DNA of 64,000 bases, from the NCBI GenBank assembly GCA_028698585.1, contig JAQVWG010000005.1:5983-69982 (forward strand), in the 5' to 3' direction. Positions within the stretch are counted from its first letter, which is position 1. Each line of letters opens with the position of its first letter. The notes beneath the pieces are model-generated. The model did no database searches, was not told the origin of the DNA, and saw nothing but the letters and a program-made list of their open reading frames with translations. Below, in pieces: positions 22,503 through 29,657 of the stretch. This DNA comes from Clostridia bacterium. GTDB taxonomy: Bacteria > Bacillota > Clostridia > Christensenellales > CAG-314. The translations under genes and the position numbers were made by a program.

Positions 22503-23693
22503 TTACTTCATCATTTGGCTTGCTAGCATTTGACACAGATGACATGCGCCACTAAACCCAACCAATGGTTTATCGTATGGGCTAATCATCTTATATGATT
22601 GAATTGGGTTATCTATCTGTAATCTATCATCTCTGCCCAGTATTCTCAATACTGGGTCACTGCTCAGTATAACTCCATTAAACTCTCTATTAGAATCGAT
22701 GTAGTTGTCATAGGTGCAATAAGGAATGTTGCTATCTGGTAAATCGCAGTACGCCTCGGCTTGAGCGTTCAACTCATTAACCAAGAACTCATTTATGCCA
22801 TAAGCTACATCGTATTTAGCATATATACTGATTTTGCTTCCCTGAAACTTAACTATATTGCGCATTTGAGCAAATATGTTAGTGTATCTCTTCTCCTCGC
22901 TTCTTAAGAACTCATCATTCGCTTTAACATTCAACCTCTTGCGCAAGTCCTCAATGGCGTTTACTGTGCCCTCGAACCCGTATGGGCGAAAATAGAAGTA
23001 GGGCATATTATACTCTTGTTTCAGGTATTCTGCAGTCTTGGTAGCCTCCTTGCTAGTGACTAGATTGTATCTAGCGCGTGTTATTGACGCAAAATCGTCA
23101 AGGCTGTTCTCTTCATTATATACGAAATTGACTTTTTGCCCCAGTGCGTTTTCCATAATGCGAATAATCTCTGCTGTGTCAGGCTTATAGTTGAACTCAT
23201 TTGCAAAATTGCCCAGAATGTTATAGGTGTTAGTCTTCCTCTTAGATTGTTTACAAAAAGTCTGGATAAGTTGTGCGCATGCCACACAGTTACCTTGATA
23301 ATAGTCCTCTGCAAGTCCTACATCGAAGGAGATAATGGGTTTATTAAACTTAGCCGTTAAATCACGCGATACGCCCTTGAGGTCGAATCCTATAACGCTC
23401 GCTATTGCTGAGGGCATAATGAATATTGCGTCGAAATTGTATTCACTGATTAATTCCTCGACAGCCTGATATAATTTCTTGGTACTACCGAGCACGATGT
23501 CTGTTTCACTGATGTGCGTCATGAATGACTTAATGGGGGTGTCCTGACTGGTCAAGCGAGGAATATATCCGTAGTTATATAATCCGTGTCCCATTGTGCT
23601 GTAATCTATTACTGCACAGTTCTTGAGATTGATTAAGTTTTCGAATACCGCCATTCTGGAAGTAATGGGGGATACGTACTTTTCTATCGGCAT
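22503..23693 (-). CDS. Nitrogenase component-1-type oxidoreductase family protein, K/N/B-like subunit (396 aa)
   Basis: Size and layout fit the Oxidored_nitro family and it follows the D-like gene by 1 nt. Start moved to the Met at 23693 (MPIEKYV...), which has a GGAGG SD. Only one conserved-position Cys (LKNCAVID). Confidence 0.65.
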   Translation of the reverse strand: MPIEKYVSPITSRMAVFENLINLKNCAVIDYSTMGHGLYNYGYIPRLTSQDTPIKSFMTHISETDIVLGSTKKLYQAVEELISEYNFDAIFIMPSAIASVIGFDLKGVSRDLTAKFNKPIISFDVGLAEDYYQGNCVACAQLIQTFCKQSKRKTNTYNILGNFANEFNYKPDTAEIIRIMENALGQKVNFVYNEENSLDDFASITRARYNLVTSKEATKTAEYLKQEYNMPYFYFRPYGFEGTVNAIEDLRKRLNVKANDEFLRSEEKRYTNIFAQMRNIVKFQGSKISIYAKYDVAYGINEFLVNELNAQAEAYCDLPDSNIPYCTYDNYIDSNREFNGVILSSDPVLRILGRDDRLQIDNPIQSYKMISPYDKPLVGFSGACHLCQMLASQMMK

Positions 23694-23694
23694 A

Positions 23695-24807
23695 TTACTT
23701 ATTACCTCCGTTGTTGATGATATTGAGTATCTCGGTGCATAATCTAGCAGTCCTTTGACAACCGTATAGTTGCGATAATGCATAATCTAACTTGGACAGG
23801 TCTAATGCGAAGTCATACTTATATGTGTGGTTGCTTATTTGTTCAAGAGTGCTGGAATAACTGTTTACAATAGTTATTTCGTCTTGAACTGACGTTATTT
23901 GGTCATAACTGTTACTGTTAAAGTCATCTACGATCAGTAGCGAAGTTTTAATGCCCAGATTACTCAAAAACTTGGCTACCTCTACTCCCCAGCGACTCTT
24001 GACGGCAACGGATAGTTTGTTACATGCAAGTTGGTCTTCATAATGCTTGACTGTGTCACATATGGTAGTATCTATCCCTAGTTGTTCATAGTATGCACGA
24101 TATTCAGCGCTCGTCTTGATATCTGTAAAGTCGTAGAAACGGCGATTGTTCCTTTCACAAAACTCGCTAACGCCCTTAAGATATTTTTTCTTGAGGACTA
24201 CTTGGTCAGAATAACATAACATATTAGATAACTTGTCAAGTGATAATTTGTCGCCCAGACGTTCACCTTGTAGAGGCATATCTACATCTAATGTTGTCCA
24301 TAGGGCCAGTCCATTCTTGATAGATTTTTTGGGTAACCTCTTGGCCAACAGAGAGTAGAAGTCATAGACACTGTCGCTGGGAGAAAACCCTATGAAATGG
24401 GGGACTGCCAGTAGGTAAACTCTATCAGAGCCATCCAGTCCGGACAGATAACTAGCGATATCTAGATTGGCAATGTTGGGTATACACGTAACGAGCACGA
24501 GTAGACTATCATCGTTATCAGCAAGCATTGACGTCACGCACTGGCGAATGGATTTCTCACAACCGAACACAAGGTCATTATCCAGTAAACGATAGGAGTA
24601 GTGCTTGCTACGATTGCCGAACGTGATTAGCTTGCTATAGAATGCACATTCGCCTATACCAACGACGAGAGTGTTCAGGTCGTCGAACATCTGCGCTTCT
24701 TCTAGCATATAGTCCATTGGACAATGGTTACCTATGTCCATAGCATAACTGCACAGAATGGCTTCTTTTTTGAGTTTTTTGGAATTGTATGTTTTAACAA
24801 TTTTCAT
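23695..24807 (-). CDS. Nitrogenase component-1-type oxidoreductase family protein, D/E/N(BchN)-like subunit (370 aa)
   Basis: Three cysteines spaced like cluster ligands (NHCPMD, GIGECAF, LVTCIPN). Start moved to the Met at 24807 (MKIVKTY...), just after the NifH-like stop. Confidence 0.65.
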   Translation of the reverse strand: MKIVKTYNSKKLKKEAILCSYAMDIGNHCPMDYMLEEAQMFDDLNTLVVGIGECAFYSKLITFGNRSKHYSYRLLDNDLVFGCEKSIRQCVTSMLADNDDSLLVLVTCIPNIANLDIASYLSGLDGSDRVYLLAVPHFIGFSPSDSVYDFYSLLAKRLPKKSIKNGLALWTTLDVDMPLQGERLGDKLSLDKLSNMLCYSDQVVLKKKYLKGVSEFCERNNRRFYDFTDIKTSAEYRAYYEQLGIDTTICDTVKHYEDQLACNKLSVAVKSRWGVEVAKFLSNLGIKTSLLIVDDFNSNSYDQITSVQDEITIVNSYSSTLEQISNHTYKYDFALDLSKLDYALSQLYGCQRTARLCTEILNIINNGGNK

Positions 24808-24811
24808 TTGC

Positions 24812-25549
24812 CTACACCAGTTGCTTGGCAAGTTGCATATACTTAGCCGTTAGTTCGCTATCGGGATAAGCATCAACGACTGTCTTGTGCTGATTCTCTG
24901 CAAGTTGAACCAATCCGCTTCGTGGTATGCAGTATGCAATCTTGCTCTGCATCTCATCACACGCCTTCTGTGTCAGTTGTTTCTCGTTCTCGACATTCTT
25001 CTCATTTAGAATTAACCCCTTAAGCATAGCATAGCCGTATTTGCCGAAGTTCTTGACTGCGTTGGCAATATTGGTTGCTGCGTACAGCGACATCATTTCG
25101 CCTGAGGTTACAATATATACTTCATCTGCAAACCCGTTCCTAATAGGCATGGCAAAACCACCGCACACCACATCGCCCAGTACATCATAGAGTATAAAAT
25201 CAGGCTTATATACATCGTACGCATCTAGTTCTTGTAGTTGTTCGAATGCTACAATTATTCCCCTGCCTGCACAACCGGTGCCCGGGACGGGCCCACCTGC
25301 CTCAATACATATAACTCCATTATATGTAACCTTAACAATGTCGTCAAGAGTAAAGTTCTCCTTGTCCCTCATAGCATCCAACACGGTTGGTATTCGTTGT
25401 CCGTCATTGTGGTTGACGGTTGAGTCTGATTTAGGGTCACAACCTATCTGCATTACTCGGTAACCCATTCTGGTCAATGCTGAGGCTATGTTGGCTACAG
25501 TGGTTGATTTACCTATTCCACCTTTTCCATAAAACGCTATTTTTTTCAC
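24812..25549 (-). CDS. NifH/BchL/CfbC-family ATP-dependent [4Fe-4S] reductase component (245 aa)
   Basis: P-loop GKGGIGKST, switch I CDPKSDST, cluster cysteines in GCAGRG and [11 protein letters not shown] start 6 nt after an AAGGAG SD. Confidence 0.9.
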
Positions 25550-28437: not shown

Positions 28438-28515
28438 ATTTTCCTTAGTTGTGATTTAGATTTATCACAATGACAAAAAAAACTTGTCTGTTTGCGTTTA
28501 CAATTGTTACATTGA

Positions 28516-29451
28516 TTAATCTGCAAAAGCTAGCTCTAGTGCGTTAACCAGATATGTGTATTGAGTTTCAATATAGATTGCATCTGCAGACACATACAGC
28601 ATCATATCGAGCAATCCAACACGCCCTGCCTGTACGGCTTCAAGTGATTGCCATACTTCGTTCTCGGCTAAGTCGCTTGGAATAGCATCCATCAGTAGGT
28701 AAATGTAGTCGCCACAATAGTCTGGCAGGAACTCATTGGAAATTGAGAAGAAGAATCCACCCTCATCAAATACATCTTGAACAGGTTGTGGTACCCTTAC
28801 ACATAGTTGATTGTACAGAATTGTGTTGAAGAAGTAGTAGTTGCCGATGAGTATCTCAAGTCCATTGTAGTAACTGAATACATTGACCTCTTTGTCGGCA
28901 ATGTTAAGTGAATTGTACTTAGCCTTAGCAGATGCAATTGCATTGTTGATACTGTTGATGGCGTCAGTAGCTTTTGTTTCGATGTCGAACAGTTCACCAA
29001 GATAATTCAATCTTTCGGCATAGTCTGTAGTCTCTGACTTGATTGGTACGACAGGAGCAATAACCGATAGTTTAGCAATGTTCTCTGCGCTCATCTACTC
29101 ATAAACCAGAATCAGGTCGGGGTCGTATGACAGGATTTCCTCCTCGTCAAACGGCTGAGTATTGACTAGTTCTTCGCAACCTTCGAATGCAAATCCCATC
29201 TCTTCATTACGGTAGAAGTTCATAAAAGCAACTGGTTTAATGTCCAACATCCACAGGTCGCCTAGTCCTGTTAGCGCAACAATTCTCTGTGGCTTAACTG
29301 GGATGGTAACTTCTTCATCATTGAGAGTTGTAATTGTCTTGGTCCTTACCCTAGTACCGTTCGTATTACCATCGCAACCAGCAAAGGTAGCAAGGCAACC
29401 ACACATCATAACTATGGCAAGAAGTAGCGCTAGTAGTTTGTTAATTTTCAT
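28516..29451 (-). pseudogene. Class III (FhuD/FepB/BtuF-type) substrate-binding lipoprotein split by an in-frame TAG
   Basis: Signal peptide plus lipobox (MKINKLLALLLAIVMMCGCLATFAGC). The two track ORFs (29095-29451 and 28516-29094) are contiguous and in the same frame: ...DPDLILVYE TAG MSAENIAKLSVIAPVV... The C-terminal part has the family-typical VWQSLEAVQAGRV. Confidence 0.7.
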
Positions 29452-29630
29452 TGTTTGGCCTACTAGTATTTCATTGTATTAACGTCAACATACACAATAT
29501 ATAGTGTTTATTTTGTTGCGTTTATTATAATCATCAATAATTGGGTACAAAAAAAACAGAATGCACGCTAAGGCGATATCTGTTGAAATAGAGGTGGCAA
29601 TCAAAACAAACTACCATAAAAGATAATTTG

Positions 29631-29657
29631 ATTTTACCATGTATAAACCTTTGTCAA
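29631..29657 (-). promoter_or_regulatory. Candidate promoter for the importer/nitrogenase-like operon
   Basis: Minus strand reads TTGACA, 15 nt, TGgTAAAAT (extended -10), about 180 nt upstream of the SBP ATG. The spacer is short. Confidence 0.3.

Follow-up and report, generated by a model that had tools for sequence, protein, structure and literature searches.

A FecCD-type importer operon joined to a nitrogenase-like reductase in a Clostridia bacterium: a rare short-D member of a wider family, with two importer genes disrupted

Why would an importer for metal chelates share an operon with an ATP-dependent reductase of the nitrogenase superfamily? This question is raised by a seven-gene unit on the minus strand of a 64,000-nucleotide stretch of DNA from a Clostridia bacterium (assembly GCA_028698585.1, contig JAQVWG010000005.1, positions 5,983 to 69,982), which as a whole is called the window here. 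In the reading developed below, to which we give about even weight, the unit is an iron-chelate uptake operon whose nitrogenase-like (NFL) reductase carries out an O2-independent, ATP-driven reduction of the imported chelate to free iron; the substrate and chemistry assigned to the reductase are those suggested by homology and gene context. The three reductase proteins are true members of the nitrogenase superfamily, and the unit is a rare variant with a short D subunit, forming a monophyletic offshoot of a wider family. The unit and its genes, in their order of reading, are the following.

22503-29451, minus strand: the seven-gene unit, all genes co-directional, with the importer (substrate-binding protein, permease 1, permease 2, ATPase) followed by H, D and K.
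28516-29451, minus strand: substrate-binding lipoprotein (SBP) gene, Peripla_BP_2 (PF01497), FhuD/FtsB-like, split by a TAG codon.
27415-28437, minus strand: FecCD permease 1, 340 amino acids (aa), intact, PF01032 at 2e-88, 81% identical to its orthologue in the closest relative (L001).
26408-27418, minus strand: FecCD permease 2, 336 aa, intact, PF01032 at 5e-81, 71% identical to its L001 orthologue.
25553-26400, minus strand: FecE/FhuC-type ABC ATPase gene, FecE at 2e-90, broken by a 50-bp duplication.
24812-25549, minus strand: NifH-like Fe protein (H), 245 aa, intact, PF00142 at 4e-89, with the P-loop, switch I and both [4Fe-4S] cysteines.
23695-24807, minus strand: D-like subunit (D), 370 aa, a shortened and highly divergent component-1 protein with a weak PF00148 match (3e-10).
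22503-23693, minus strand: K-like subunit (K), 396 aa, PF00148 at 4e-45, component-1 fold.

The genes follow one another with almost no spacing. The two permease genes meet in an ATGA overlap at 27418-27415; seven nucleotides separate permease 2 from the ATPase ATG at 26400, three separate the ATPase from the NifH-like GTG at 25549 (preceded by AAGGAG), four separate H from the D-like ATG at 24807, and a single nucleotide lies between D and the K-like ATG at 23693. A first-pass annotation, made by a model from the letters of the window, had reported these seven co-directional genes and near-zero spacings, and each junction was reread as it gave them; its sizes for D and K are also correct, and the motifs it named in H are all in place, as is VCGGFAMP. 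It had further described the host as a spore former and the unit as lacking nif, bch and cfb accessory genes nearby. A GerA/B/C germinant-receptor operon in the window confirms the former, and a scan of most open reading frames (ORFs) of at least 150 aa across the 64 kb turned up no nifB/E/N/V, bch or cfb gene.

Which branch of the superfamily do these proteins belong to? The window has the Fe protein with two PF00148 partners that defines the superfamily. The curated model that fits H best is CfbC, with 324.5 bits against a cut-off of 402, followed by nifH (317 against 394), BchL (183 against 345) and BchX (176 against 331). It is 66% identical to the H protein of a related cluster in Sporomusa termitida, 44-48% identical to true NifH and 37% identical to BchL. 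Within the family as a whole all pairs of H proteins share at least 54% identity (median 69.5%), while the median is 51% (maximum 54.8%) towards true NifH and 40% towards BchL.

D is far more divergent. It has no NCBIfam match, and a sequence search of the PDB with it gave no credible match, only weak chance matches to antibody light chains. An AlphaFold2 model built with 19 family members (predicted local distance difference test score 88) has the nitrogenase component-1 fold, and a Foldseek search with this model did not favour any one of the nitrogenase, NifEN, Mar and dark-operative protochlorophyllide oxidoreductase (DPOR) chains. Family alignments of D hold a set of invariant residues, H28-C29-P30, E53-C54, T107-C108-x-P110 and H137, which are common to the window, S. 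termitida, the locus L007 and a metagenome-assembled genome (MAG) of Paenibacillaceae. The three invariant cysteines are spaced 25 and 54 residues apart, which compares with the cluster ligands of BchN, NifE and NifD, whose spacings we take to be 25/61 in BchN and 26/66 in NifD. K is less divergent: among curated models it scores highest with NifE (102 bits, cut-off 505), while BchB gives 85 against 490 and CfbD 22 against 268, and its best PDB match is again NifE (3e-14), with MarD (9fmg_A) at 1.4e-9. No conserved cysteine was found in the family alignment of K. A D subunit with three cysteines and a K subunit with none would suit one [4Fe-4S] cluster shared between the subunits, of the kind known from DPOR and NifEN, in a component that would hold no complex cofactor; neither ligands of the iron-molybdenum cofactor type nor nifB were found.

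The first-pass annotation had placed H, D and K outside any characterised clade, and this placement has held, since all curated cut-offs are missed and the D family excludes the references in the tree described below. True nitrogenases (Groups I-III) are set apart by the nifH score given above, by nifD at 52 bits against 654 and nifK at 25 against 427, and by the cysteine-less K; NifEN by the NifE score, by NifN at 16 against 327 and by the absence of nif context. The models for DPOR and chlorophyllide oxidoreductase (COR), which make up Group V, likewise remain out of reach, with BchN at 34 against 420 and BchZ at 43 against 529 in addition to the BchL, BchX and BchB scores, and no bch genes are present. 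DPOR (BchL/BchN/BchB or ChlL/N/B) would nonetheless be a close likeness in design, being an ATP-dependent Fe protein with a heteromeric component and no complex cofactor, whose inter-subunit [4Fe-4S] cluster is held by three cysteines of one subunit and none of the partner, and whose substrate is a metal-tetrapyrrole. The window differs in having no bch context and D and K subunits that are 60-150 residues shorter, and an equivalent of BchB Asp36 has not been established. CfbCD (Group IV-B) resembles the window system in that CfbC is the best model for H and in having a small catalytic component with only a [4Fe-4S] cluster; CfbD, however, is a single homomeric subunit, whereas the window encodes two distinct subunits in a spore-forming bacterial host and has no cfb context.

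Two further groups, MarBHDK (Group IV-C) and IsrBHDK (Group IV-F), are NFL systems of non-diazotrophic function, and in the case of Isr regulation is shared with an ABC importer that takes up its substrate (PMC13474568). In Mar both subunits carry P-cluster cysteines and MarB builds an L-type cluster, whereas the window K has no cysteine and no B gene was found; similarity to the 9fmg chains is weak (1e-9 to 3e-6). Isr, judged by its description, differs in that the window has an iron-chelate importer context and no radical-SAM gene, and both Mar and Isr stand in a sulfur context. Group VI, the Elusimicrobia type, has been described as having a NifH that is sister to the BchL/X group and many adjacent radical-SAM genes (bioRxiv 10.1101/765248). 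The window proteins are excluded from it for these two reasons, as H scores about 320 bits with NifH and CfbC and about 180 with BchL and BchX, and radical-SAM neighbours are absent. What the window does share in full is the character of the importer-linked NFL systems of Firmicutes, namely the gene layout, the D motif HCP...EC...TCxP and the cysteine-less K.

A neighbour-joining tree of D and K, with NifD, NifK, NifE and NifN of Clostridium butyricum and BchN and BchB of Roseobacter ponti as references, points the same way. This tree is rough, as it has no bootstrap and its references do not extend to CfbD, Mar, Isr, Nfa or Group VI, and the placement outside characterised clades therefore rests mainly on the curated hidden Markov model cut-offs, the cysteine pattern and gene context. 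In the tree the D family is monophyletic (73 of 73 sequences) with all references outside it, and the short-D group is monophyletic within the family. The four C. butyricum Nif references group with BchB, no family sequence falls among them, and K lies closer than D to the canonical proteins.

Is the joining of importer and reductase peculiar to this genome? The linkage, which the first-pass annotation had offered as a point on which its reading could fail, is strongly conserved. In a scan of 185,579 species genomes, made with long-D peptides only, 66 loci were recovered and their neighbourhoods surveyed by phmmer; in 63 of these a FecCD-type importer is adjacent to or interleaved with the reductase genes. 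The layouts are these.

39 loci: AraC, SBP, permease, permease, ATPase, H, D, K, which is the order seen in the window.
18 loci and one truncated locus: AraC pointing the other way, then H, SBP, permease, ATPase, D, K, with a single permease and the importer between H and D-K (interleaved type).
5 loci: importer with AraC, divergent from H, D, K.
3 loci: no importer.

The hosts include Clostridium botulinum, C. sporogenes, C. argentinense, C. tetanomorphum, Tissierella, Sedimentibacter, Faecalicatena contorta, Paenibacillus sanguinis, Pelosinus, Sarcina ventriculi, Paraclostridium, Romboutsia, Terrisporobacter and one Methanoplasma MAG, so that the linkage spans Clostridia, Negativicutes, Bacilli and one archaeon. 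In the tree the D and K proteins of the interleaved type each form a clade of their own, which means that the reductase has diversified together with the type of importer. One example is in S. termitida, where plasmid pSPTER (L014 1-12037) carries, in this order, genes for a TonB-dependent siderophore receptor, an AraC-family regulator, an SBP, two permeases, an ATPase, NifH, D, K and a PF00756 esterase; its D has 431 aa and its K 409 aa, the latter being 28% identical to the window K at 3e-52. This cluster, from a termite-gut host, is plasmid-borne and also flanked by transposases, which suggests mobility. A bacterial-type importer-H-D-K cluster was also seen in an archaeal genome, the MAG of Candidatus Methanoplasma glyptotermitis (L049), where it is likely to have arrived by horizontal transfer in the termite gut.

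The architecture is thus not without precedent, as the first-pass annotation had supposed, but widespread (among others in Clostridium botulinum, C. sporogenes, Paraclostridium, Sarcina, Pelosinus and Paenibacillus), and it was noticed as early as 2012, while remaining uncharacterised. NifH together with NifEN-like genes has been reported beside ABC transporters in C. botulinum, Alkaliphilus oremlandii, C. cellulovorans and M. labreanum, the E-like protein having three cysteines and the N-like one lacking them, and a coupling of metal transport to cofactor assembly was suggested (Dos Santos et al., 2012; PMC3464626). The units of that survey (C. botulinum CLM_0808/0809, A. oremlandii Clos_0313/0314) are like the window in joining an ABC transporter to a NifH-like protein and two component-1 paralogues, one with three conserved cysteines and the other with none, and C. 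botulinum is among the 66 loci with the window's gene order. The window differs in its D of 370 rather than about 430 aa, in its place within a rare monophyletic offshoot and in its two broken importer genes. In Desulfitobacterium hafniense three extra nifHDK-like operons have been described, all with transporter genes, and the one among them that also includes a gene for an AraC-type regulator is induced by O2 exposure (Kim et al., 2012; PMC3306737); the operon with the AraC gene, 'Nif operon IV' of strain DCB-2, is probably of the same kind, to go by its description (PMC3306737). A 2026 review in Chemical Reviews gives functions for Nfa, CfbCD, Mar, Isr, DPOR and COR only, does not discuss the importer context, and names the uncharacterised NFL clades as a main open problem, with gene context of little help beyond hints of sulfur or tetrapyrrole chemistry (PMC13474568). 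In the searchable literature neither a functional study of the importer-linked family nor any discussion of its context since 2012 was found.

What, then, is imported? The first-pass annotation had left the substrate class open, but it can be narrowed, since all of the context points to iron chelates (siderophores or haem) and not to B12. For the window type, represented in the search by the intact SBP of L001, the best SBP structures are FtsB, FhuD and FhuD2, all ferric-hydroxamate binders (5e-20 to 1e-14), while the nearest structures to the C. botulinum type are FeuA, YfmC, BauB, SirA and CeuE. The SBP of the interleaved type (Paraclostridium) is closest to Lmo2184 (2e-56) and IsdE (1e-46). 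In the interleaved SBPs the position aligned with IsdE His229 is invariant (19 of 19), and that of IsdE Met78 is Met in ten, Phe in seven and His in one, these two being the residues that we take to be the haem ligands of IsdE. The suggestion that two permeases mark a siderophore-type layout has been borne out accordingly: clusters with two permeases carry siderophore-type SBPs, and those with one carry the IsdE-like, haem-type protein. In 15 of the interleaved loci (L064-L084, e.g. L084 9014-9520) a gene of about 168 aa for a split-barrel protein of the HutZ/HugZ/ChuZ family (HutZ at 1.4e-20), whose members bind or degrade haem, directly follows K. What these clusters have in common with Isd-type haem uptake operons (IsdE/IsdF with IsdG/I) and with the HutZ/HugZ/ChuZ haem-degrading proteins is the IsdE-like SBP, the single permease, the ATPase and the HutZ-family gene, with H-D-K in the position that the haem-degrading enzyme has in such operons; they differ in that the known enzymes IsdG/I and HugZ need O2 and none is known to contain a nitrogenase-like component, and the window SBP is itself FhuD-like and not IsdE-like.

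Signs of iron regulation accompany the family. Fur-box-like sites (TGATAATNATTATCA, at most two mismatches) occur at 0.60 per kb in the non-coding sequence of the cluster spans and at 0.18 per kb elsewhere in the same loci, a 3.3-fold enrichment (Fisher p = 3e-6) that includes perfect matches in four loci, and a Fur-family gene follows K in L007. No riboswitch, cobalamin or other, was found upstream of the window operon or in seven related loci, and B12 is disfavoured for this reason. The window does hold one cobalamin riboswitch (RF00174, 88.9 bits) at a distance from the unit, at 58162-58372 on the plus strand, and the two ORFs downstream of it (58544-59771) match no Pfam family.

How might uptake and reduction be joined? 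In other bacteria iron is set free either by haem oxygenases that depend on O2 or by pairs of esterase and reductase. In the proposed mechanism a NifH-like homodimer would use ATP hydrolysis to drive low-potential electrons to a D-K heterotetramer, whose only cluster would be an inter-subunit [4Fe-4S] held by three cysteines from D and none from K. D-K would then reduce the chelate just brought into the cytoplasm, either at its Fe(III) centre or at the organic ligand or macrocycle, and the iron would thereby be freed without O2. H-D-K would in this way be an anaerobe's replacement for the O2-dependent haem oxygenases and for the esterase-dependent release of iron from very low-potential siderophores. 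In the haem-type clade, reduction of the porphyrin ring would have a direct precedent in DPOR, COR and CfbCD, while in the siderophore-type clades, which include the window, reduction could act on either the Fe(III) centre or the ligand. The same role as predicted for H-D-K is played by proteins of O2-independent haem-iron release (the radical-SAM ChuW/HutW and the CobN-like dechelatase HmuS) and by the ferric-siderophore reductases FhuF, ViuB/YqjH and FchR; to our knowledge these belong to families unrelated to H-D-K, and none uses an ATP-gated Fe protein. The broader form of the proposal, that the family is a new functional class of ATP-driven, O2-independent reductases of an imported haem macrocycle or of ferric siderophores, releasing iron, with subfamilies matched to their chelates and the short-D group as one of them, is put forward more tentatively and would have to be called somewhat improbable as a whole.

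Several points weigh against this proposal. Ordinary reductases that work with flavin or ferredoxin are able to reduce hydroxamate siderophores, and the siderophore-type target is its weakest point because hydroxamate complexes need no such strong reductant; for the FhuD-like type a reductase driven by ATP looks like more than is needed. Where the cluster is of the haem type, degradation might be the work of the HutZ-family protein. SBP homology gives the class of substrate and nothing finer. No strong Fur box was found in the window, the best candidates having two mismatches (29844-29858) and three mismatches (29522-29536). Among the short-D loci, L004 has the order rpsO-H-D-K with a convergent gene for a TonB-dependent receptor and no adjoining importer, and in four others (L010, L011, L012 and L089) a large protein replaces the importer directly upstream of H-D-K. 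No biochemical or genetic evidence for the family was found in the searchable literature. Finally, the importer is broken in the window, so its function should not be assumed in this organism.

The last of these points concerns what the first-pass annotation had overlooked: it took the seven genes as whole, although the SBP gene holds an in-frame TAG and the ATPase gene a 50-bp duplication. Its claim that a FecCD-type importer shares one operon with a compact NifH/D/K-like system thus stands, but not its assumption of a functional importer here, and five of the seven genes are intact (permease 1, permease 2, H, D and K). The TAG at 29097-29095 divides the SBP gene into pieces of 118 and 192 aa and aligns with an Asp of the intact 312-aa L001 orthologue. 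Two independent metagenome assemblies, L017 and L018 (ENA ERZ27250894, Logan SRR22315503), carry the gene split in the same way, which shows the nonsense codon to be real and fixed in the lineage. Recoding of the TAG, as for pyrrolysine, was considered and rejected, as this codon is an ordinary stop that terminates 14 of the 45 long ORFs of the window, two of them in the operon itself (the NifH-like gene and permease 2). The second lesion has the following position.

26253-26352, no strand assigned: perfect tandem duplication of 2 x 50 bp (TRF: period 50, 2.0 copies, 100% match), which shifts the frame of the ATPase gene.

Here the N-terminal piece of the ATPase (26400-26299) ends after 33 codons at a TAG (26301-26299), and the remaining ORF (26296-25553) is without the first 18 residues. 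An independent contig that is 99.98% identical (L015) has no duplication and an intact ATPase of 265 aa; in a blastn comparison of the window with L015, query bases 944-993 are used twice, and removal of one copy in silico restores exactly the 265-aa L015 protein. The importer is therefore inactivated in this genome by a lineage-fixed nonsense codon in the SBP gene and a strain-specific duplication in the ATPase gene. While its protein families match those of the iron-chelate type II importers (FecCD/FhuBCD class), the SBP and ATPase are not intact and it cannot be counted as a complete importer of that class. As it stands in the sequence, the unit has probably lost its function or is in decay, with H, D and K still intact.

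Could the system nevertheless still work here, with the TAG read through or bypassed by another SBP and the duplication an assembly artefact or a minority variant? This is the alternative that survives best, although it is unlikely. L015 belongs to the same species and lacks the duplication, both permeases and H, D and K are intact, the TAG has been kept in three assemblies while the SBP gene has not decayed further, and an ATG immediately follows the TAG. Set against this, the window uses TAG as a normal stop codon, a C-terminal SBP half made on its own would have no signal peptide, a perfect 50-bp duplication is atypical as a sequencing error, and two independent lesions among four importer genes suggest relaxed selection.

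A second alternative concerns the chemistry and supposes that an imported porphyrin, corrinoid or sirohydrochlorin-type macrocycle is reduced in order to make or recycle a cofactor and not to release iron. The NFL enzymes with a single [4Fe-4S] cluster in the catalytic component (DPOR, COR and CfbCD) all reduce a tetrapyrrole C=C bond (PMC13474568), D has the same three-cysteine pattern, and the haem-type SBPs of one clade would fit as well. Iron nutrition, however, is indicated by the Fur-box enrichment, the Fur-family gene, the siderophore receptor, the esterase and the siderophore-type SBPs of most clusters; tetrapyrrole-biosynthesis genes are not found adjacent to the clusters, and the cobalamin riboswitch is absent. 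Salvage or remodelling of this kind is accordingly rated as rather improbable, and lower than a still-working importer in the window.

Lower again comes cofactor or metal-cluster assembly, in which D-K would be a NifEN-like scaffold and the importer would supply the metal. The coupling proposed by Dos Santos et al. (PMC3464626) is of this kind, and NifE is both the best curated model for K and its best PDB match; but D and K lie some 400 bits outside the NifE and NifN cut-offs, neither the window nor the surveyed loci hold a nifB, a radical-SAM gene or a candidate recipient enzyme, and the importers are of the chelate type (Peripla_BP_2/FecCD), including IsdE-like haem binders accompanied by a HutZ-family gene, and not ion transporters. 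This makes such a scaffold improbable to a marked degree. That the importer and H-D-K are independent neighbouring units, brought together incidentally, would be in keeping with a strong sigma-70-like match inside the nifH-like gene (25347-25319) and with the few family loci that have H-D-K and no importer, but chance adjacency is effectively excluded by synteny, given gaps of one to seven nucleotides or overlaps between the genes and an importer that is adjacent in 63 of 66 loci and interleaved in 18, across Clostridia, Negativicutes, Bacilli and one archaeon.

Iron release from the imported chelate remains the preferred reading, and it bears on the question of how strict anaerobes gain iron from haem or very low-potential siderophores without O2, which has been answered only in part. 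The context of this family is unusually informative, as the reductase almost always stands in an operon for an iron-chelate or haem importer, often with Fur boxes. If the proposal is true, this would be the first nitrogenase relative dedicated to iron acquisition, and it is directly testable because the family occurs in cultivable and partly tractable species (C. sporogenes, C. botulinum group I, Paraclostridium, Sarcina, Pelosinus and Paenibacillus sanguinis). For the genome of the window itself the message is more modest, namely a rare short-D variant whose importer is already decaying.

How rare is the short-D variant? Its D proteins have about 310-370 aa, compared with about 430 aa elsewhere in the family. 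Word-based searches of 5.8 billion clustered proteins returned two, five and eight relatives, and HMMER searches against 1.84 billion representatives gave 124 matches, about 25 of them full-length short forms. A scan of species-representative genomes with the short-form K alignment found no relative, and a scan of Joint Genome Institute (JGI) metagenome contigs recovered the window's own strain only. The closest relative, L001, is a Clostridia MAG (GCA_036651915.1) in which all seven genes are intact and the same Sel1-repeat neighbour is present; H, the ATPase and permease 1 are each 81% identical to their window counterparts, permease 2 is 71% identical, K 60%, the SBP 50% and D 48%. Another relative, L013, has two permeases and an ATPase followed by H-D-K. 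The large protein that takes the place of the importer in four short-D loci (L010 3-2993, L011 1-2445, L012 2-1441, L089 1-741) has at least 996 aa, no Pfam match and stretches of helical repeats. Its four copies are mutually homologous (E 2e-17 and 8e-15), the metagenomic loci that carry them have a GC content of 28-54%, and it may be a surface receptor.

The flanks of the unit hold candidate control elements and a regulator gene.

29631-29657, minus strand: promoter-like site, TTGACA (29657-29652), a 15-nt spacer and the extended -10 TGgTAAAAT (29639-29631).
29598-29615, minus strand: leader- or operator-like motif GGTAGTTTGTTTTGATTG, about 36 nt after the -35 box.
22421-22455, minus strand: terminator-like hairpin, a perfect 12-bp stem followed by a T-rich tail, -19.8 kcal/mol, z = -4.0.
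30319-31215, plus strand: divergent AraC-family regulator gene, PF12833/PF00165, with an N-terminal helix-turn-helix (HTH).

The -35 box TATTGACAAAG recurs upstream of the orthologous L001 operon; a consensus scan missed the promoter-like site at 29631-29657 because of the 15-nt spacer. The leader motif could be an operator or a leader element. A related motif, GGTAGTTTGATATT, occurs three times in the L001-L003 leader, where the first copy stands at the same distance from the -35 box and the L001 copies (4057-4231) are about 70-90 nt apart, while GGTAGTTTG(A/T)T(A/T)TTGA has one copy at the unit and is absent elsewhere in the window. Alignment of the window and L001 leaders gave nothing informative beyond the shared -35 box and the GGTAG motif. 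At the other end, the hairpin at 22421-22455 is likely to be the terminator of the seven-gene unit, just as the first-pass annotation had it; it was not called by a consensus terminator scan because it has no clean T run. The sigma-70-like site inside the NifH-like gene (25319-25347, minus strand) reads TTGACG-17-TATAAT (11 of 12 positions) and is a possible promoter for D-K, though probably a chance match.

Whether the AraC gene is part of the unit is uncertain. An AraC-family gene lies within the locus of about 21 kb in 60 of the 66 related loci, where the AraC proteins have a C-terminal HTH like that of S. termitida (66 matches to that type versus three to the window type), and no AraC gene was found in L001.

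Elsewhere in the window two neighbouring regions were observed. A sulfo-sugar-like island on the minus strand (10626-19886), with a GC content of 43-48% that is above its surroundings, carries genes for an MFS_2 transporter, an IclR regulator, an RpiB-like isomerase, a split transketolase, a GFO/IDH/MocA oxidoreductase, an aldehyde dehydrogenase and a thiamine pyrophosphate enzyme; it resembles a sulfoquinovose catabolic cluster of the transketolase type, and a second split transketolase is found at 49620-51360. Within 1004-10194, also on the minus strand, lies a gene for a DruE-like helicase of 1742 aa (PADLOC DruE1 at 7e-169; DEAD and MrfA Zn-binding domains), before which stands a 904-aa protein that matches no family, the two forming a Druantia-like defence pair that is adjoined by a PDC-S01 candidate defence gene (AAA_14/DUF4143).

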